From Nocardioides sp. (lineage in GTDB: Bacteria > Actinomycetota > Actinomycetes > Propionibacteriales > Nocardioidaceae): a stretch of 64,000 nucleotides of DNA. A program made the translations under genes and the position numbers. The notes under the pieces were generated by a model. It saw nothing but the letters and a program-made list of their open reading frames with translations. It made no database searches and was not told the DNA's origin. The stretch covers positions 34,348 through 98,347 of the forward strand of contig NZ_JAYSFM010000004.1 of NCBI RefSeq assembly GCF_041913365.1. Direction: 5' to 3'. Positions 36,285 through 44,805 of the stretch are shown here, one piece after another (the first letter of the stretch is position 1; every line of letters starts with the position of its first letter).

Positions 36285-37355
36285 GTGGACGTCCTCGACT
36301 CAGTCGTCATCGGTGCCGGGCAGGCGGGCCTCGCCGCGTCGTACTTCCTGCGCCAGCGGGGCATCGACCACGTGGTGCTGGACGCCAACCCCGAGCCCGG
36401 CGGCGCCTGGCAGCACCGGTGGTCCTCCCTCAGCATGGACGACGTGCACGGCGTCGCCGACCTCCCCGGCTCCGCGGCACCGGCGGGGTCGCGGCACGCG
36501 GCCAACCTCGTGGTGCCGGACTACTTCGGCGACTACGAGCGGAGCCAGGGGCTTCCGGTGGTGCGGCCGGTGCGGGTCGAGCGCGTCGACACCGAGGGCG
36601 ACCTGCTGGTCGTGCGTGCCGGCGAGCACGAGTGGCGTACGCGCACGCTCGTCAACGCCACCGGCACCTGGACGCGGCCGTTCGTGCCGTTCTACCCCGG
36701 CATCGAGACGTTCGCGGGGGAGCAGGTGCACACCGCGCACTACCCGGGCGCCGAGCACTTCCGCGGCACGCGCGTGCTCGTGGTGGGCGGCGGGGCGTCC
36801 GCCGTGCAGTTCCTCGGCGAGCTCGCCCCGATCGCCGACACCCTGTGGGTCACCCGGCGGCCGCCGGTCTGGCGCGAGGAGTTCGACGCGTCGGCCGGGC
36901 TGGCCGCGGTGACCGCCGTCGAGGAGCGCGTACGCCGTGGGCTCCCGCCCGCCAGCGTGGTCAGCGTGACCGGGCTCAAGCTGCGGCCGCAGGAGCAGGA
37001 GGCCGCCCGGCTGGGTGCCTACGAGCGGCTGCCGATGTTCTCCCGGATCGAGCCCGACGGGGTCCGCTGGGCCGACGGCAGGTCCGAGAGCGTCGACGTG
37101 ATCCTGTGGGCGACGGGGTTCCGGCCGGCGGTGGACCACCTGGCGCCACTCGGCCTGCGGAGCCCCGAGGGCGGCATCGCCCTCGTGCCGGTGCCCGGCA
37201 ACGTGCAGGGCGCGACCACCGCCGAGCGCGACCCGCGCGTGCAGCTCGTCGGCTACGGGCCCTCCGCGAGCACGATCGGCGCCTCGCGGGCCGGCCGGCA
37301 GGCGGCGCTCGCGGTGTCCCGCCACCTCGCGGCCGAGCCCGCCATCGCGGGCTGA
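36285..37355 (+). CDS. FAD/NAD(P)-dependent flavoprotein monooxygenase-like oxidoreductase
   Basis: VIGAGQAG, NATGTW, HTAHY, VVGGGASA, WATGF. Confidence 0.88.
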   Translation: MDVLDSVVIGAGQAGLAASYFLRQRGIDHVVLDANPEPGGAWQHRWSSLSMDDVHGVADLPGSAAPAGSRHAANLVVPDYFGDYERSQGLPVVRPVRVERVDTEGDLLVVRAGEHEWRTRTLVNATGTWTRPFVPFYPGIETFAGEQVHTAHYPGAEHFRGTRVLVVGGGASAVQFLGELAPIADTLWVTRRPPVWREEFDASAGLAAVTAVEERVRRGLPPASVVSVTGLKLRPQEQEAARLGAYERLPMFSRIEPDGVRWADGRSESVDVILWATGFRPAVDHLAPLGLRSPEGGIALVPVPGNVQGATTAERDPRVQLVGYGPSASTIGASRAGRQAALAVSRHLAAEPAIAG

Positions 37356-37357
37356 TT

Positions 37358-37406
37358 GTCAACCTTCGTCAACCGGCGTCAACCGCCTCCCGGGCGGCCG
37401 CACGGT
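37358..37406 (+). promoter_or_regulatory. Triple GTCAAC box (10-bp period) plus -10-like CACGGT, upstream of lipoprotein A
   Basis: GTCAAC at 37358, 37368, 37378; 17 nt then CACGGT; same layout at 43673. Confidence 0.8.
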
Positions 37407-37456
37407 GGTCCCAACGCCGCACCCGACCGGGGTCGGCAACCTGAAGGGACACGACC

Positions 37457-37717
37457 ATGAACACCAACGGAAACACCATTCGCAAGGGCTTCGCCGCCGT
37501 CACCGCTGCCACCGCGTTCTTCGCCATCACCGCGTGTGGGACCGAGGCCGCCCCGCCGTCACAGGACATCGGGGGCACGCAGCAGCAGCAGAACGAGCCG
37601 CGGTCGCCCAGGACCACCATCCCGAGGACTGACTTCAACGACGAGTTCGGCGACGCCGAGCCGGAGCAGCCGGGGAAGGATCACGATCCCATCGACCGCA
37701 CGAAGGACTGGCACTGA
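37457..37717 (+). CDS. Small lipoprotein A (86 aa), unknown function
   Basis: Signal peptide RKGFAAVTAATAFFAITA-C, GAAGGGA RBS; paralog at 43769. Confidence 0.82.
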   Translation: MNTNGNTIRKGFAAVTAATAFFAITACGTEAAPPSQDIGGTQQQQNEPRSPRTTIPRTDFNDEFGDAEPEQPGKDHDPIDRTKDWH

Positions 37718-37728
37718 GAGACCGGGGG

Positions 37729-37757
37729 CCGGGCGGCGGACGGGGTACGTCGCCCGG
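37729..37757 (+). terminator. Hairpin after lipoprotein A
   Basis: CCGGGCGGCG/CGTCGCCCGG stem (one G-U). Confidence 0.4.
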
Positions 37758-37801
37758 TCCCGTCCCTGCCGGGCCTTTTCTCGGGCCGCCGCTCGATCTC
37801 C

Positions 37802-40699
37802 TCATCCCGCCGCTGTCCCGGCGATCGCCCGGGACAGCGGCACGTGCTCGCGGGCATCAGCTGCAGCCCGCTTGAGCAGCCTCGCCGCCACCGTGCCCTG
37901 CCGCTCGCGCAGGGCGCACTGCGCGGCCCGCCACCTGGCGTACCCCGCGTTGTGTGGGCGGCCGAGCCCGTCCCAGCCGGCCGCGGCTTGCACCCAGGCG
38001 TCGACGGTCGCCCGGTCCTCGCACCTGGCGAGTTCTGCCTCGAAGGCCGCACGGTGGGCGCCGAGGTTGTGGTCACCGGCATGGTCGCTCAGGAGGCCGG
38101 CCTTGTCGGCCAGGGCGCGTAGTGCCTCGCGGTCCCGACCTGCTCGATCGGCACCGGTCTCCGACCCGGCCTGGTGGGCGACGCAACGGGCCGCGACCAC
38201 CAGGGCCGGCGCGACCACTCGGATCGGCGTACCTCCCGCGACGAGGTCGAGGGCGCGGAGCAGGCGGGTCCTCGCCGGCTCCGGCTCATCGGCCCAGCAG
38301 CCGACGGACCCTGCGGTGACCAGGAGTTCGAGGTCCGTCTCGAGGTTGCCGGCCACCGTCGCCCAGATCGCGGCCAGCCGATCCTGGGCAGCCTGGTGGG
38401 CCCCTCGCGCCGAGTCGACTGCCGCGCGCAACCCGTGCAGGTGGAAGCGACCGACGTCGACTGGCTCGCTGCGGCCGATGCCGATCTCGTCCTCCGCCGC
38501 GTCGATCCGTCCAGCGCGCAGGAGCGCGATGGCCAGGTTGATGTGCAGGATGGCCACTTGCGGGTTGGCGATGCCGTGCTCGTCCGCCACCGCGAAGCCC
38601 CCGTGGGCCAGGTCGGCGACAGCGGCGAGTGGACGGCCGTTGATGAGGAGGACGTCTGTGGCGGCGACCGCCTGGCGGAGGTCGCCCAGCGGGTCGAGCG
38701 ACAGGCCGGCGCGCTGCTTCGACCCGGCGAGCATGCGCACTGCCTCGTCCGTCCTGCCTTCCACACCTGCGTGCCAGGCGGCATCCATCACGCAGTCGCG
38801 CAGCACGATGCGGTCACCCAGCGCTTCCGCCGCCGCGAGCTTGGCCTGAAGGGCGTCGCGCGCCTCGTCGAAGCGCCCGGCGGCCTCGAGGAGGTTGACC
38901 CTCCAGTCCAGTGCGTGCAGCGTCCCGGAGCACAGGGGGACGTGCTCGAAGAGCCGGAGGGACTCGTCGATCAGTGCACGAGCGACCGAAGCCCCCTCGC
39001 GCTGGCCGCGGAACTCGGCCGCACGCCACAGGAGCTCGGCCCGGACCGCGTCATCGACGTCGCCGAGGACGTCACCCGCCTGGTCACTCATCGCCGCCGC
39101 TCGATCCCACTGGAGCGAGAACCTCAGGCCGTCCATCGCCTCCAGGTACGCACCGGCACGGGTGATCGGGGGATCGACGTCGGGCGACGCATCGTCGGGC
39201 CACACCTCCAGCGCGCGCAGCCAGTGCTCCGCCTCCCGGCCGCGGTCGTAGCGCCGGGCGGCGGCCCGGGCGGCCGAGATCCGCCACTGGAGCTCGGGTT
39301 CGGGCAGGCCGGCCCGTTGGAAGTGCTCAGCCACCTCCGCCGGCTCGGCGTCGGGAGTCGCAGCCAGAGCCTGGCCAACGGCCCGGTGCACCGCCTGGTC
39401 CTCCCCGGCCACGAGCCGCTGCTGGACTGCCTCGGCGAGCAACGGGTGCTGGAGCTCGATGGCCTCACCGACGCGCCGGAGCAGGAGTCGCTCCCTCAGC
39501 TCGCGCACGCGGCGGGTGAGGGTGTCGGCGTCGACGCCGACCGCCTCCGCAAGGACCGCGGGACGAACGGGCCTGGCTGCGGCCCCCAGGACGCGGAGCA
39601 CCGACCACGACTCCTCGCTGGTGCCGGCGAGGCGCCGGTCGAGCAGGTCGAGCAGGAGGCTCGGCAGGCCGTCGCCCTCGTCCAGCTGGACGGCCAGCTG
39701 TTCGGTGAACAGCGGCTGGCCACGGCTTCGCGCGTGGATCGTGTCGATCGTCTCGACCTCGACCGTGCCGAGGAGGGCGAGCTGGTCGGCGGTCTCGTCG
39801 CGGCTGAGTGGACCGAGCTCCATCACCGAGGCGGCCGGCAGGCGGCGTCGTACCCGGACCAGCCACTCCTCGCTCGCGACTGGTGTGCCCGGGTCGCCAC
39901 GTCGCCAGGTCCCGACCACGGGGACCGAGACGGAGCGACCAAGGAGGTACTCGACGAGGTCCAACGTCATGGGATCGGCCCAGTGGAGGTCCTCGATCTG
40001 GAGTGCGAGGGGCCGGTCCTCGCATAGCGCCTCGACCACGGCTGCCACCGCGGCGAAGAGGAGGCCCTGGTCACCCGTGCGGCCGGGAAGATCGGACGAG
40101 GACTGGATCTCCGGTAGGAGCGCCGACACCGAAGCCGTGACGTACGGCGCACAACGGCCCAGGGCGTCGCGGAGCCAGGCGCCGTCGCGCGCACCATGGA
40201 CTGCCCGCAGCACGTCCGCGACGGGCAGCAACGGGATCACGGTCGACAGCGGCAGGCACTGCCCACCCGCGACGAAAGCCTCGGTCGACGCGGCCGCGGC
40301 CTCGATCAGGGTGGTCTTGCCGATGCCCGCTTCGCCGGTGACGAGGAGGAGGCCGGTGCCGGTCTCGAGGTGGTGTCGTACGACGTCGAGCTCGGCGCGG
40401 CGGCCGGCGATGCGGGGTGCGGTGGGACGGTCGCCGTTGGTGGGGGTGGTGGCGGCGAGCCAGAGGTCGTGGAAGGTGGTGGTGTCTCCGTCCATGGCCT
40501 CGACGAGGAGCTCGAGGGTGCCCCAGGCGGGGAGCGCCGGGCGGGAGAAGGTCTTGGAGACGGTGGTGTGGGAGACGCCGGTCTCGCGTGCGAGGGTGCG
40601 GAGGGAGGGCCAGCCGGCCTGGTGGTGGAGGTCGTGCAGGGCGTCGTTGAGCGTCCGGACGGGTCCGGGCGCGAGGTCGGGGCGGGGGAGGGCGCCCAT
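37802..40699 (-). CDS. HTH-STAND regulator 2 (965 aa): XRE-like HTH, AAA/LAL-type NTPase, helical sensor region, no LuxR domain
   Basis: LRTLARETGVSHTTVSK HTH; GEAGIGKTT Walker A; IEDLHWAD Walker B; TGATG overlap with the upstream paralog. Confidence 0.88.
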   Translation of the reverse strand: MGALPRPDLAPGPVRTLNDALHDLHHQAGWPSLRTLARETGVSHTTVSKTFSRPALPAWGTLELLVEAMDGDTTTFHDLWLAATTPTNGDRPTAPRIAGRRAELDVVRHHLETGTGLLLVTGEAGIGKTTLIEAAAASTEAFVAGGQCLPLSTVIPLLPVADVLRAVHGARDGAWLRDALGRCAPYVTASVSALLPEIQSSSDLPGRTGDQGLLFAAVAAVVEALCEDRPLALQIEDLHWADPMTLDLVEYLLGRSVSVPVVGTWRRGDPGTPVASEEWLVRVRRRLPAASVMELGPLSRDETADQLALLGTVEVETIDTIHARSRGQPLFTEQLAVQLDEGDGLPSLLLDLLDRRLAGTSEESWSVLRVLGAAARPVRPAVLAEAVGVDADTLTRRVRELRERLLLRRVGEAIELQHPLLAEAVQQRLVAGEDQAVHRAVGQALAATPDAEPAEVAEHFQRAGLPEPELQWRISAARAAARRYDRGREAEHWLRALEVWPDDASPDVDPPITRAGAYLEAMDGLRFSLQWDRAAAMSDQAGDVLGDVDDAVRAELLWRAAEFRGQREGASVARALIDESLRLFEHVPLCSGTLHALDWRVNLLEAAGRFDEARDALQAKLAAAEALGDRIVLRDCVMDAAWHAGVEGRTDEAVRMLAGSKQRAGLSLDPLGDLRQAVAATDVLLINGRPLAAVADLAHGGFAVADEHGIANPQVAILHINLAIALLRAGRIDAAEDEIGIGRSEPVDVGRFHLHGLRAAVDSARGAHQAAQDRLAAIWATVAGNLETDLELLVTAGSVGCWADEPEPARTRLLRALDLVAGGTPIRVVAPALVVAARCVAHQAGSETGADRAGRDREALRALADKAGLLSDHAGDHNLGAHRAAFEAELARCEDRATVDAWVQAAAGWDGLGRPHNAGYARWRAAQCALRERQGTVAARLLKRAAADAREHVPLSRAIAGTAAG

Positions 40700-43593
40700 C
40701 ACGCGCCTGCCGCGGTGCGGGTGATGGCTTGGGTGAGCGGGACGTGCTCGCGCGCGTCTGCTGCGGCTCGCTTGAGCAACCGCGCGGCGACCGTGCCGCG
40801 ACCCTCGCGCAGGGCGCACTGCGCCGCGCGCCATCGGGCGTACGCCGCGTCGTGCGGGCGGTCCAGGGCGTCCCATCGCGCGGCCACGTCCGCCCAGAGG
40901 GCTGCAGTGGCGGTGCCGTCGTGCCGGGCCAGCTCGGCGCTCACGGCGCAGCGGTGCGCTGCCACGCACGGATCGTCCGACGGCCCCGCGGAGCCGATGC
41001 CGCACCGCTCGGCCAGCTCCAGCACGACCTCCCGGTAGGGGGAGCGTCCGCGGGTCGGGTCCGCCCCGCTGGCGATGGAGCGAGCGGCCCCCACGACGGC
41101 GCGGAAGAGCATCCGGGGCGACGCGCCACCGTCGAGGTTCACCTGGATGCAGTGGAGGATCTGGTCGATCAGCCGGGTCGGCGTCCCGGTCCAGTAGTCC
41201 ATGTCCACGAGCTCGCCCAGGAAGTCCGACTGGACCGAGTCGGGGGCGCCCACGACGCGTCGTACCTCCTCGAAGCGCGCCGCACCCTCGATCACCCGCC
41301 CGGAGATAACGTCGATCTCGGCGCGGAGGAAGTGCAGCACCCAGTGGTCGTAGTCCGGCGGGTCGTCGGGGCCGACCCCCAGCAGTGCCGTCGCGCGGGC
41401 GACCTGTCCGGCCCGCAGCATCGCCTCCACGACGTTCCCGCGCAGGAACATCACCATCTCGCTGTCCACCCCGAGCGACGTCGCGGCCTCGAACGCGGGC
41501 CGGGCCACGGCCTCGATCTCGTCAACGGTGGCGCAATTCTTGAGGAGCACGTCCGTAGCCATCACCGCCTGCCGGATGTCGCCCAGCGGGTCCGTGCCGT
41601 CCGGGGTCAGCGCCGCCGCCTGTCGCAACAGCTCGAAGCATCCGGCCACGTCCCCGTCGGTGCCGTGCGGACCGGCCAACGTCGTGCGGTGGTACCTCTG
41701 GAGGCGTGCGTCGCCGATCCGGGCGGAGACCTCCGCCGCCTCGCGGACGTGGACGAGCGCCTCGTCGAACCGTCCCAGGTCCTCCAGCAGCAGCCGCTTC
41801 CGGTTGAGCGCACGGACGAGGCCGGGTCCTTCGGGCAGGAGCCGGTGGATCTCGAGCGCCTGGTCGATCAGGGCCAGGCCGACCGACACGCCCTCCTGCT
41901 CGCCGCGGAACGCCGCCGCGCGCAGGAGCACCTCGACGCGCACCTCCTCCGGCGCGGTGGCGAAGCGGTGCTCCGCCTCGGCGCTCAGGGCCGCGCCCCG
42001 GTCCCACTGGAACGACTCGTCGAGGGCATCGATCGCCGCGAGGTAGGCGTCCGACAACCGGGTGGGTGGCTCACCCACGCTGTCGAGCCCGTCGGGCCAG
42101 ATCTCCAGGACCCGCAGCCACTGCTCGGCTTCCTGGCTCCAGTCGAACCGCCTCGCCGACTCCAGCGCGGCCGCGACGCGCCAGGGCAGCTCCTCCCCGG
42201 GTTCGGTGGCTCGCTGCCAGTGCAGGGCGACCTCGGCCGGCTCGGGTGCGGGGCTGTTCGCAAGGGCCCGGGCCAGGCGACGGTGCACCTCGCGACCCTC
42301 GCCCGGCACGAGCCGGCGCCGCGCGGCTTCGGCCAGCAGGGGGTGGTCGAGCACGGCGTTGTCGGCGTCGTCGCCACGGCCGAGCAGGCGCAGGGCGCGC
42401 AGCGACCGCATCGCCTCCGCCAGCTCGTCCACCTCGAGCCCAGCGATGGTCCCCACCACGGTGGCGGGCAGTGGTCGGTCGGCAACGCCGAGCGCGCGGA
42501 CCACGCGCCACGGCGCCGGGTCGAGGCCCTCGAGCCGCGCGTCGAGCAGGTCGGAGAGGGCGTGGGGCAGCCCGGCCTCGGGCAGGTGGGCGGCGAGGTG
42601 CGTCGTGAACAGCGGGTGCCCGCGGCTCCGCGAGAAGACGGCCTCGACGTCGGCCACGGTGCCGAGCCCGACGAGCTGCGCCTCGGTCTCCTCGCGGGTC
42701 AGCGGGCCGAGGCGCACAGTCGAGCTGGCCGGCGCCCGCTCGACGCGCGCACGCCACTGGGTGCTGACGGCCGGCGTGCCGGGGTCGCCGTCCCGCCAGG
42801 TCCCCACGAAGGCGAGGTCCCCGTCCGCGGCCGACAGCGCCATGTGCTCGAGGAGGTCCAGCGTGACGGTGTCCGCCCAGTGCAGGTCCTCGAGCACCAC
42901 CGCCACGCGACCGTCGCGCGCCAGCGCAGCCAGCGCCGCTCCCACGGCGGTGAACAGGTGCTGGCGCCCCAAGGAGTCGTCCGCCGCGGTGGCGGTCCCG
43001 AGCTCGGGCACGAGCCTCGCCAGCTCCACGGCCACGAACGCCGGGCAGGAGGCGAGGGCTGTGGCCAGCCGGCGCCCGTCGTCCTGCGCCAGCGCATCGC
43101 GCAGCGCGTCGCACACCGGCATCAACGGCACGTCGATCGACAGCGGCAGGCACCGACCAGCCAGCACGAGCGCGTCCGGGGACGCCGTCGCCGCCTGCAC
43201 GAGCGTGGTCTTGCCCATCCCCGCCTCGCCGGTCACGAGCAGCAGGCCCCTGCCGTGTGCCAGGTGGCGGCGTACGACGTCGAGCTCGGCGCGGCGGCCG
43301 GCGATGCCCGGACCGGGTGCCGGGCCGCTGCCGTTGGTCGGGGAGGAGGCGGCGAGCCACAGGTCGTGGAAGGTGCCGACGTCGCCGCCCAGCGCTTCGA
43401 CGAGGAGCTCGAGCGTGCCCCACCCCGGCAGCGCGCCCGAGGAGAAGACCTTCGAGACGGTGGTGTGGGAGACCCCCGTCTCCCTGGCGAGCGTGCGCAG
43501 CGAGGGCCAGCCGGCGCGGTGGTGGAGGTCGTGGAGGGCGTCGTTGAGCGTCCGAGCCGGACCCGCGACGTCGGGTCGGGGAAGTGCGCTCAT
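40699..43593 (-). CDS. HTH-STAND regulator 1 (964 aa), paralog of the downstream gene
   Basis: Same HTH; GEAGMGKTT; LEDLHWAD; GGAGGG RBS before ATG43593. Confidence 0.88.
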   Translation of the reverse strand: MSALPRPDVAGPARTLNDALHDLHHRAGWPSLRTLARETGVSHTTVSKVFSSGALPGWGTLELLVEALGGDVGTFHDLWLAASSPTNGSGPAPGPGIAGRRAELDVVRRHLAHGRGLLLVTGEAGMGKTTLVQAATASPDALVLAGRCLPLSIDVPLMPVCDALRDALAQDDGRRLATALASCPAFVAVELARLVPELGTATAADDSLGRQHLFTAVGAALAALARDGRVAVVLEDLHWADTVTLDLLEHMALSAADGDLAFVGTWRDGDPGTPAVSTQWRARVERAPASSTVRLGPLTREETEAQLVGLGTVADVEAVFSRSRGHPLFTTHLAAHLPEAGLPHALSDLLDARLEGLDPAPWRVVRALGVADRPLPATVVGTIAGLEVDELAEAMRSLRALRLLGRGDDADNAVLDHPLLAEAARRRLVPGEGREVHRRLARALANSPAPEPAEVALHWQRATEPGEELPWRVAAALESARRFDWSQEAEQWLRVLEIWPDGLDSVGEPPTRLSDAYLAAIDALDESFQWDRGAALSAEAEHRFATAPEEVRVEVLLRAAAFRGEQEGVSVGLALIDQALEIHRLLPEGPGLVRALNRKRLLLEDLGRFDEALVHVREAAEVSARIGDARLQRYHRTTLAGPHGTDGDVAGCFELLRQAAALTPDGTDPLGDIRQAVMATDVLLKNCATVDEIEAVARPAFEAATSLGVDSEMVMFLRGNVVEAMLRAGQVARATALLGVGPDDPPDYDHWVLHFLRAEIDVISGRVIEGAARFEEVRRVVGAPDSVQSDFLGELVDMDYWTGTPTRLIDQILHCIQVNLDGGASPRMLFRAVVGAARSIASGADPTRGRSPYREVVLELAERCGIGSAGPSDDPCVAAHRCAVSAELARHDGTATAALWADVAARWDALDRPHDAAYARWRAAQCALREGRGTVAARLLKRAAADAREHVPLTQAITRTAAGA

Positions 43594-43672
43594 GGGGCCC
43601 TCCAACCACCCATTCCTCAGGTCGAGGATCCTCCCGCCGGCGACGCTCCGGCAACCCGATTCCGTCTCTGCT

Positions 43673-43721
43673 GTCAACGATCGTCAACACGCGTCAACCC
43701 GCCTCCGCGCGGATCGAGGGT
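43673..43721 (+). promoter_or_regulatory. Triple GTCAAC box (10-bp period) plus -10-like GAGGGT, upstream of lipoprotein B
   Basis: GTCAAC at 43673, 43683, 43693; 17 nt then GAGGGT. Confidence 0.8.
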
Positions 43722-43768
43722 GGTGCCCATCGCCGGACCCGAACCGGCCCACCCGAAGGAGCACTGCC

Positions 43769-44059
43769 ATGTCCACCACATCCATCACCACCGTGCGGCG
43801 AGGCTTCGCAGCCGCAGCTGCCACCGTCGCCCTCGTGACACTCGCTGCGTGTGGCACCGAGGTCGCACCACCGAAGAACGACATCGGAGGAGCGGGCCCC
43901 AAGGAGCCCCTCCCCACCTTCACGCTGGAGGACTGCCTCAACCCCGGGAAGCAGCCCCCCGTCACCACCTGCCCCTACCCGGTCCAGTCCGGTGACGAGA
44001 TCGCCGGCACCCTCAACCGGCTGCAGTACGACGACGAGTACGGACGCCCCGGCCGCTGA
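43769..44059 (+). CDS. Small lipoprotein B (96 aa), paralog of lipoprotein A
   Basis: RRGFAAAAATVALVTLAA-C-GTEVAPPKNDIGG; GAAGGAG RBS; hidden at the end of the track ORF 42062..44059. Confidence 0.85.
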   Translation: MSTTSITTVRRGFAAAAATVALVTLAACGTEVAPPKNDIGGAGPKEPLPTFTLEDCLNPGKQPPVTTCPYPVQSGDEIAGTLNRLQYDDEYGRPGR

Positions 44060-44075
44060 GACCTCCCTCGGGGGT

Positions 44076-44104
44076 GGGCGCGGCGGCATGGAGCCGTCGC
44101 GCCC
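44076..44104 (+). terminator. Hairpin after lipoprotein B
   Basis: 12-bp stem GGGCGCGGCGGC/GCCGTCGCGCCC (one G-U). Confidence 0.5.
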
Positions 44105-44160
44105 GCCGGTCCTGACGCCCGTCACGGGTCAGGATCGCGGCGGCTCGCTAGGCTGACGCC

Positions 44161-44805
44161 ATGGGGGAGATCGAGAACCGCCCGCACGACCCGTCGCAGA
44201 TGCGCATCTCCGACGCCGACCGCCAGCGCGTGGCCGACGTGCTGCGCGATGCGGCCGGCGAGGGGCGGCTTGACCTCGACGAGCTGGAGGAGCGGCTCGA
44301 GCTGACCTTCCAGGCCAAGACCTACGGCGAGCTGGTGCCGATCACCCTGGACCTCCAGGCGACGGGCCCGGTCACCCCGCCGGCGCACGCGCCCGTGCGT
44401 CGGGCGTCCCACCTCCCCGCGGTCGGACACAACTCCTCGACCGCGATCATGAGCGAGTGCAAGCGCCAGGGCGTCTGGGCCGTCCCGGCGCACCACAGCG
44501 CCTTCGCCCTCATGGGCAGCGTGCTGATCGACCTCCGCCAGGCCCAGCTGTCCGGCCACGAGACCCAGATCAACGCCAGCGCGATCATGGGCGAGGTCAA
44601 GGTCATCGTCCCGGCCGACATGCACGTCGTGGTCGACGGGACGCCGATCATGGGCGAGTACAACCAGGCCAAGGACAAGGTCCCGGCCGAGCTGCGCCCG
44701 GACTCGCCGACCGTGCGGATCCGCGGCATGGCCCTCATGGGATCGGTGACGGTCCAGCGCCAGCCCCCGCCCGGCACGCCGAAGAAGATCATCGGCACCT
44801 ACTGA
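44161..44805 (+). CDS. DUF1707 (SHOCT-like) plus LiaF/DUF2154-like domain protein
   Basis: MRISDADRQRVADVLRDAAGEGRLDLDELEERLE; MGSVLIDLR; leaderless TAGGCT-6nt-ATG. Confidence 0.88.
   Translation: MGEIENRPHDPSQMRISDADRQRVADVLRDAAGEGRLDLDELEERLELTFQAKTYGELVPITLDLQATGPVTPPAHAPVRRASHLPAVGHNSSTAIMSECKRQGVWAVPAHHSAFALMGSVLIDLRQAQLSGHETQINASAIMGEVKVIVPADMHVVVDGTPIMGEYNQAKDKVPAELRPDSPTVRIRGMALMGSVTVQRQPPPGTPKKIIGTY

Follow-up and report, generated by a model that had tools for sequence, protein, structure and literature searches.

Introduction

STAND ATPases are best known as immune receptors, and to our knowledge only three bacterial STAND transcription factors, i.e., MalT, GutR and AfsR, have been studied mechanistically. 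Here, we describe a further candidate family encoded in a stretch of 64,000 nucleotides from Nocardioides sp. (contig NZ_JAYSFM010000004.1, positions 34,348 to 98,347 of the forward strand), which is called the window in the following and whose own numbering is used throughout. The window carries two adjacent STAND genes and, on either side of them, a small lipoprotein gene (lipoA, lipoB) preceded by a triple box, i.e., three GTCAAC hexamers in exact 10-bp phase. Our literature searches returned no description of this motif or this STAND family, nor of its operator and the small secreted proteins that accompany it in Actinomycetota.

AfsR and its SARP relatives combine an N-terminal DNA-binding domain with a NOD (the STAND ATPase) and tetratricopeptide repeats (TPR), and in AfsR ATP binding relieves autoinhibition (PMC10936776, PMC11301090). 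The AfsR-dependent afsS promoter of Streptomyces coelicolor shows the -10 element CACTGT, a poor -35 element and direct repeats over the -35 (PMC10936776). The window resembles this arrangement in its domain order as well as in its promoters, where tandem direct repeats overlap a poor -35 and are followed by a -10 of the CACnGT type. It differs in that the window STANDs have a five-helix XRE-type helix-turn-helix (HTH) domain, while AfsR has an OmpR-type winged helix plus BTAD. Furthermore, three 10-bp units at about -55 to -30 stand in contrast to two 11-bp units centred at -29.5 for AfsR, and the target genes encode small secreted proteins instead of afsS or antibiotic clusters.

MalT of E. 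coli and GutR of B. subtilis are STAND activators that depend on a signal and on ATP, as proposed here for the window STANDs. As a multimer, MalT occupies arrays of asymmetric boxes that all point in the same direction. Its HTH is C-terminal and of LuxR type, whereas that of the window STANDs is N-terminal. For GutR, the comparison covers the architecture, i.e., an N-terminal HTH followed by NTPase and TPR. Neither of the two is linked to small secreted-protein genes. Phased direct repeats that replace the -35 on one helix face, with a weak -10 just downstream, are also known from the pho boxes of PhoB/PhoP and other class II sites; there, however, the units have 11 bp and are bound by winged-helix response regulators, while the STAND clusters are without a response regulator.

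Finally, the RRNPP systems of Bacillota (PlcR-PapR, NprR-NprX, Rap-Phr) join an N-terminal XRE-type HTH to a C-terminal TPR sensor and have an adjacent gene for a small secreted pro-protein, whose promoter carries the receptor's box (PMC10075063). In both cases, moreover, paralogous pairs occur and the small protein varies strongly. In contrast to RRNPP receptors, the window STANDs hold a complete NOD ATPase between HTH and TPR. The small proteins are also longer (70-110 aa, some of them lipoproteins, vs. 10-65 aa), and the phylum differs (Bacillota vs. Actinomycetota, where RRNPP-type peptide quorum sensing is not described).

Results

The triple box in the window and its genome

The window is part of a genome of 4.64 Mb (25 contigs, 72% GC) and contains two triple boxes, A and B. 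Their coordinates are collected in Table 1. The positions, the 10-bp phasing, the 17-nt gap and the subsequent hexamers CACGGT and GAGGGT, all reported in the initial annotation, were confirmed at both sites. Box A begins 2 nt past the TGA stop of a FAD-type oxidoreductase gene (gene end 37355), and box B is found 79 nt from the STAND1 start codon in divergent orientation. With up to two mismatches, the window holds two matches (A and B), while 0.00 are expected from 100 shuffles. With up to three mismatches, the whole genome yields A and B alone, besides a register-shifted self-overlap of site B, and the two-box pattern GTCAAC-N4-GTCAAC is likewise restricted to these sites. A genome-wide scan had been proposed initially as a way to define the regulon. 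Both an nhmmer profile built from 34 promoters and regular-expression scans of the genome returned nothing beyond A and B, i.e., no wider regulon emerged.

Between A and B, hexamer positions agree in 18/18 and spacer positions in 4/8 cases. From box 1 to the ATG, the two sites share 73% identity, while shuffles reach 49 +/- 3% and the preceding 60 nt reach 54%. Thus, the leader is conserved too, as had been claimed. The STAND paralogues are old (49% protein identity), such that neutral intergenic DNA should have stopped aligning. A simple 10-bp tandem repeat (micro- or minisatellite) was ruled out since the spacers differ within as well as between sites (cttc/cggc and gatc/acgc).

Conservation within Nocardioides

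We scanned 401 genomes of the same genus with the relaxed pattern GTCMRC-N4-GTCARC-N4-GTCAAC, using the reversed pattern as control. The scan found 35 sites in 29 of the genomes, the control none in any genome. At 33/35 sites, a STAND homologue is encoded directly beside the box, either divergently (ATG 65-115 nt from box 1) or convergently behind the small gene. STAND homologues (E <= 1e-80) are present in 53/401 genomes. Box and STAND are found together in 27 genomes, the box only in 2, the STAND only in 26 and neither in 346 (Fisher p = 4.8e-25).

For the STAND-positive genomes without a strict box, 17 of 19 fetched loci hold a degenerate promoter in the same register, as identified by an indel-tolerant nhmmer profile. 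Here, boxes 1 and 2 are altered (e.g., GTCCAG / GGCCAG-TTCT-GTCAGG), and 15/17 have an exact GTCAAC as box 3. That is, these genomes are not true negatives. When the STAND alignment was used as query, Nocardioides terrigena and two metagenome-assembled genomes were found to contain such loci. The 10-bp phase is unbroken in all 49 distinct promoters over which it was assessed, and phase and position are kept across about 45 genomes, which bears out the earlier suggestion of selection on the boxes. We consider it very likely that the triple box is a conserved functional promoter/operator.

The clusters consist of 1-3 tandem STANDs flanked by one or two units of box plus small gene. In locus L002, a single STAND has both a lipoA-type and a lipoB-type neighbour. 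Boxes orthologous to site B are present in L002, L045 and L049, where boxes 1 and 2 are degenerate, and many clusters are without a divergent box.

Two matches from the genus scan were rejected. L035 (G311) is a chance match with neither STAND nor small gene. L055 (G188:C18) turned out to be an inverted-repeat GTCAAC/GTTGAC array (GTCAAC-tgtc-GTTGAC ... GTCAAC-cctt-GTTGAC, about 76400-76500), which is intergenic, has no STAND nearby and probably serves as binding site for a dimeric regulator of another kind. A metagenome-wide scan for the exact triple box yielded at least 120 matches. Nearly all of them are unrelated 10-mer tandem repeats, mostly true repeats with identical spacers on unrelated low- or mid-GC contigs; only L125 (beside a STAND C-terminus) and probably L094 are of the STAND-linked kind. 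Since the triple GTCAAC is common in metagenomes as a trivial 10-mer repeat, the motif is diagnostic only with its context (genus, GC). Two other elements were observed on metagenome contigs. A near-identical triple box, GTCAAC-[GC][CT]TT-GTCAAC-GTTT-GTCAAC-GC, recurs on unrelated mid-GC contigs (L113, L143, L154, L162, L178, L197; GC 0.43-0.47, some from gut) and may be another conserved regulatory or repeat element. A dispersed, highly conserved element GGGTCAACCCGGGTCAACTCGGGTCAACCCGGATTAACCCGGAAAAATTAAAA on L078, L079, L110, L123, L132 and many other contigs (GC about 0.3) looks like a repeat of a eukaryotic or organellar genome.

Anatomy of the promoter

Column statistics were obtained from 31 distinct promoters. 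Exactly 17 nt past box 3, all of them show a hexamer nACnnT, in which A2 and T6 are found in 31/31 and C3 in 30/31 cases and which is followed by GG. Both the 17-nt spacing and A2/T6 lie outside the search pattern with which the promoters were found. A and T at positions 2 and 6 are the hallmark of a sigma70-type -10 element. The initial annotation had placed the last box at the -35 position, in line with these statistics. When the hexamer is set to -12 to -7, the boxes come to lie at about -55 to -50, -45 to -40 and -35 to -30, i.e., the class II geometry is present at the level of sequence, with predicted start sites. Position 1 of the hexamer is never T, and box 3 matches TTGACA in the 17-nt register at 2/6 positions; the promoter therefore looks intrinsically weak.

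Conservation extends beyond the hexamers, again to columns outside the search pattern. A T precedes box 1 in 27/31 promoters, a C directly follows box 3 in 28/31, and CGG is conserved 11-13 nt past box 3. In spacer 1, which shows nTTC/TTCT, 25/31 promoters have T as the second letter, and the spacers are thus not fully free. The earlier claim of kept hexamers and diverging spacers stands for A and B, with the correction that spacer 1 is constrained across relatives. Box 3 is nearly invariant, and boxes 1 and 2 drift in distant clades.

The 17-nt spacer between box 3 and the hexamer (37384-37400 and 43699-43715) shows a tendency to a short GC inverted repeat, which reads CCGCC-N5-GGCGG at A. 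It was rejected as a separate element: the mean stem of 3.71 vs. 3.30 +/- 0.12 for shuffled spacers is largely explained by the conserved CCG...CGG.

Table 1. Positions of the triple boxes and associated features in the window (SD, Shine-Dalgarno sequence).
Feature	Position	Strand	Details
Triple box A	37358-37383	+	GTCAAC-cttc-GTCAAC-cggc-GTCAAC; hexamers at 37358/37368/37378; conserved in relatives
-10-like hexamer A	37401-37406	+	CACGGT; 17 nt past box 3; predicted start ~37413
Leader stem-loop A	37416-37437	+	GCCG.ACCC / GGGGTCGGC; predicted 5' untranslated region, upstream of SD GAAGGGA (37443-37449)
lipoA	37457-37717	+	86-aa lipoprotein; lipobox ITAC, then GTEAAPPSQDIGG ... RTDFNDEFGD ... 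DWH
STAND2	37802-40702	-	966 aa; XRE-type HTH + AAA_16 NOD + winged helix + TPR-like solenoid
STAND1	40699-43593	-	964 aa; architecture as STAND2; Walker A GEAGMGKTT; recognition helix SHTTVSKVF, residues 42-50
Putative STAND1 promoter	43654-43625	-	-35-like TTGCCG (43654..43649), 18 nt, -10-like GATCCT (43630..43625)
Triple box B	43673-43698	+	GTCAAC-gatc-GTCAAC-acgc-GTCAAC; hexamers at 43673/43683/43693
-10-like hexamer B	43716-43721	+	GAGGGT; 17 nt past box 3; predicted start ~43728
Leader stem-loop B	43732-43748	+	GCCGG / CCGGC; upstream of SD GAAGGAG (43755-43761)
lipoB	43769-44059	+	96-aa lipoprotein; lipobox LAAC, then GTEVAPPKNDIGG ... LEDCL..GKQPPVTTCPYP ... NRLQYDDEYGRPGR

Structure and family of the STAND proteins

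STAND1 and STAND2 are near-identical in their first ~130 and last ~60 residues and divergent in between. The STAND1 stop overlaps the STAND2 ATG as ATGA (40699-40702, minus strand), so that both genes probably form one operon, and the overlap suggests translational coupling. The two proteins match AAA_16 with E = 9.9e-21 and 2.9e-18. Sequence matches of the N-terminus to HTH families are weak: both proteins give such matches at residues about 28-72 (HTH_3 with E = 0.005), and the TyrR HTH is matched with E = 0.1. Across 44 homologues, we find the Walker A motif GEAGMGKTT and an invariant E235-D236.

An AlphaFold2 model of STAND1 based on these 44 homologues (predicted local distance difference test, pLDDT, of 90.7) starts with a five-helix N-terminal domain, from which a disordered linker (84-100) leads to a P-loop NOD; a winged helix and a long helical solenoid follow. 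Its best Foldseek matches in the PDB are 6mfv (STAND-TPR), Avs3, MalT (8bob), CED-4 and Apaf-1. An all-helical solenoid covers residues about 430-964 of the model. Further matches are APC/C TPR subunits and the OGT TPR, and some homologues show TPR matches in Pfam. As modelled, the window STANDs are bona fide STAND NTPases with a C-terminal TPR sensor.

The N-terminal domain was also modelled alone (residues 1-92, pLDDT 85.4), which gives helices at 12-26, 32-39, 43-52, 58-67 and 72-83. Almost all of its listed Foldseek matches are XRE-family HTH domains, including C.Esp1396I, ClgR, SinR, DdrO and HipB, with target-normalised TM-scores of mostly 0.6-0.75, a root mean square deviation of 2-3.5 A and E-values of 0.02-0.1. 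By its predicted fold, the domain is an XRE (Cro/C1-type) HTH, i.e., a five-helix bundle.

Membership in the SARP family (AfsR-like) was rejected, given that no Trans_reg_C or BTAD match was found and that the N-terminus folds as a five-helix XRE-type HTH. The same holds for the LAL/MalT family, as there is no GerE/LuxR match, the C-terminus belongs to the helical solenoid and the HTH is N-terminal. PADLOC assigns the STANDs to no defence system, a partial match to the NOD region of TOMM kinase/cyclase proteins is far below the cut-off, and a PDB sequence search with full-length STAND1 gave no match. At an E-value of 1e-20 or less, the family has at least 700 members; named ones are all from Nocardioides and are annotated only as ATP-binding, AAA or TPR proteins.

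In the divergent region at site B, the -35-like element of the putative STAND1 promoter is 18 bp from box 1. Comparable motifs (TGGACC/TTGCCG plus GATCCT/CATGCT) are found in the same places of other divergent loci. The initial annotation had considered autoregulation possible, and the recurrence of the divergent box-STAND placement in relatives agrees with this. In addition, a perfect 10-bp palindrome, GAGGATCCTC (43624-43633), overlaps the putative STAND1 -10. This or a near-identical sequence is present at the equal place in L002, L037 and L056, and it may be a second operator.

Recognition helix and box variants

An identical putative recognition helix had been reported for the two STANDs, and indeed both read GVSHTTVSK. 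In the 44 homologues, S42, T44, V46 and S47 of the predicted helix are invariant, and S-H-T-T-V-S is nearly so. Changes at residues 43 and 48 go along with changes in boxes 1 and 2: SHTTVSK is found with GTCAAC, SPTTVSA with GTCCAG, SRTTVSR with GTCCCG/T and SHTTVS[AT] with GTCAGG. When relating K48 to box 2, K goes with GTCAAC in 18 and with another box in 5 cases, while other residues go with GTCAAC in 2 and with another box in 10 cases. These counts, which are not corrected for phylogeny, are suggestive of a STAND-box link.

The STAND had been put forward as the protein that binds the shared box. In agreement with this, it is the only conserved candidate for DNA binding, i.e., it adjoins 33/35 sites, co-occurs with the box, carries an XRE HTH and has a helix that tracks the boxes.

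Small secreted proteins behind the boxes

Every box is followed by a gene for a protein of 70-110 aa with a signal peptide (all 47 predicted small proteins). The claim that the box precedes lipoprotein genes is thus correct for both window genes but too narrow for the relatives, whose targets are small secreted proteins and not always lipoproteins. LipoA and LipoB share 48% identity, which is confined to the N-terminal 46 residues.

The mature parts fall into several unrelated-looking types. The lipoA type comprises lipoproteins with AACG[TA]E.APP.QDI and a C-terminal GNRxDFGDEYG / NRMDFRD, the lipoB type lipoproteins with the two-Cys core LEDCL...QPPVTTCPYP and NRxxYDDEYGRPGR. A third type is of Sec type, with RPCFMxxxxWN..GPQPTCP and a DFMP tail, and the small proteins of distant clades show D.VA.RKA.MA.Y. 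Otherwise unrelated types have a C-terminal motif in common, namely R-x-x-[FYW]-x-D-[EN]-[YG], which is often duplicated, or an ending in ...DFMP or ...DWH. A two-Cys core is likewise seen in several types (PCF...GPQPTCP; DCL...QPPVTTCP). None of the small proteins was assigned to a family of Pfam, NCBIfam or PADLOC. About 100 nt past lipoB, the same strand carries a gene with DUF1707 (SHOCT-like) and LiaF-like_C domains (44161-44805).

A stem-loop in the leader

The similarity of the A and B leaders is largely that of a stem-loop in the predicted 5' untranslated region. Among 39 long leaders, folding shows a mean z of -2.7 compared to shuffles, with 36/39 below -1.5. The stem-loop is located 5-10 nt past the predicted start and about 10 nt ahead of the SD. 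Stem sequences vary widely among leaders and remain complementary, i.e., the structure is kept and not a motif. Distant clades have short leaders without a stem-loop. An Rfam scan of 37000-44300 (E <= 1) found nothing at the leaders and one sub-threshold ASdes match inside STAND2. The stem-loop may serve to stabilise the mRNA, or it may be involved in regulation.

Discussion

Our functional statements rest on sequence, comparative genomics and predicted structure. With this basis, we favour, at a moderate level of confidence, that the adjacent STAND binds the boxes and activates the small-gene promoter. The triple box would then be the operator of a dedicated, activator-dependent promoter, in which three (T/C)GTCAAC units at 10-bp spacing occupy about -55 to -30 of the predicted start and box 3 takes the place of the -35 element and is followed, after 17 nt, by a weak -10 (nACnnT). 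An ATP-bound, oligomerised XRE-HTH/NOD/TPR STAND would bind the boxes head to tail on a single DNA face, with one HTH per box, and would recruit RNA polymerase, such that the gene of the small secreted (lipo)protein is transcribed into an mRNA that starts with the stem-loop leader. At site B, where the STAND1-STAND2 operon has its probable -35 on the minus strand 18 bp downstream of the boxes, the bound protein could also feed back on the regulators. Since similar STAND-promoter motifs are present in other divergent loci, positive feedback on the STAND operon is possible at B-type sites; many clusters, however, have no divergent box.

Several points weigh against an activating STAND. The usual targets of XRE-type HTH proteins, which bind as dimers, are inverted and not direct repeats, and repression would be just as conceivable for a site over the -35. 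The covariation of helix and boxes is uncorrected for phylogeny, and some clusters hold 2-3 STANDs yet one recognisable box. Furthermore, box 3 remains GTCAAC in clades with a different recognition helix, and a simple one-helix-one-box code thus cannot explain everything. That box 3 does not follow the helix suggests an additional constraint there, most simply by RNA polymerase; box 3 may also be bound by something else.

If the same STAND were a repressor, its occupation of the -35 region would keep the small-protein promoter silent, and a signal would be needed to free the DNA of it. The overlap of box 3 with the -35 position fits this, as does the prevalence of repressors among XRE-family HTH proteins, the closest folds being C-proteins, SinR, DdrO and HipB. 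We nevertheless consider repression unlikely, because the absence of a good -35 and of a T at -10 position 1 in the 31 promoters fits activator dependence rather than a strong promoter in need of silencing. Moreover, activators of the PhoB, SARP and MalT types have sites of this layout, with phased direct repeats that extend from the -35 in the upstream direction (PMC10936776), and the STAND regulators of known function (MalT, GutR, AfsR) are activators. An even less probable explanation has the STAND as a mere neighbour, with the boxes serving another factor encoded elsewhere, e.g., an OmpR/PhoB-type response regulator, or with box 3 and the nACnnTGG hexamer as the promoter of an ECF or other alternative sigma factor. 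Direct repeats with a 10-11 bp period are indeed typical of sites for winged-helix response regulators, a housekeeping -10 usually shows less conservation than is seen here at C3 and the trailing GG, and box 3 is independent of the recognition-helix variants. Such a factor would, however, need perfect co-occurrence with a patchy cluster (53/401 genomes). The conserved genes of the clusters include neither a sigma factor nor a response regulator. The motif is also found at STAND clusters only: this genome has no further GTCAAC-N17-nACnnTGG promoter, and STAND-negative genomes lack the motif save two unrelated chance matches.

The boxes can also be read on the opposite strand, as GTTGAC(A), i.e., a near-consensus -35 (TTGACA) for divergent or antisense transcription, e.g., of the STAND operon. 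The reverse complement of T plus box 1 is in fact GTTGACA, and one such minus-strand site, TTGACG-16-GACAAT, turned up at A in a consensus scan. On the other hand, site B and the other divergent loci are without an nAnnnT hexamer 16-18 nt beyond any reversed box, and no divergent gene exists at site A or at any convergent-only locus. The distance is fixed to the -10 of the small gene and variable (65-115 nt) to the STAND start codon. Taking the kept distance to the small gene's -10 together with the convergent loci that have no divergent gene, we regard this reading as highly improbable.

The cluster may also be viewed as an actinobacterial peptide-signalling (quorum-sensing-like) module, in effect a circuit of RRNPP kind that uses a STAND protein as its switch. 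This is a tentative idea to which we assign a rather low probability. The small secreted proteins would be pro-signals, from which the conserved C-terminal segment (R-x-x-[FYW]-x-D-[EN]-[YG], ...DFMP, ...DWH) is released. The TPR of the receptor would sense the signal, directly or after import, and the receptor would form oligomers at the triple box and so switch on the gene of its own pro-signal. Paralogous sets of receptor and signal would give different specificities.

The analysis computationally defines operator, promoter geometry and target genes for a further, uncharacterised family of XRE-HTH + NOD + TPR proteins. The resulting triplet of regulator, operator and target is compact and unusually clean, as each genome has two sites and both the 10-bp phase and the distance to the -10 are fixed. 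If it is true that the small proteins are signals, the clusters would represent genetically encoded peptide signalling in Actinomycetota, where such systems are essentially undescribed.

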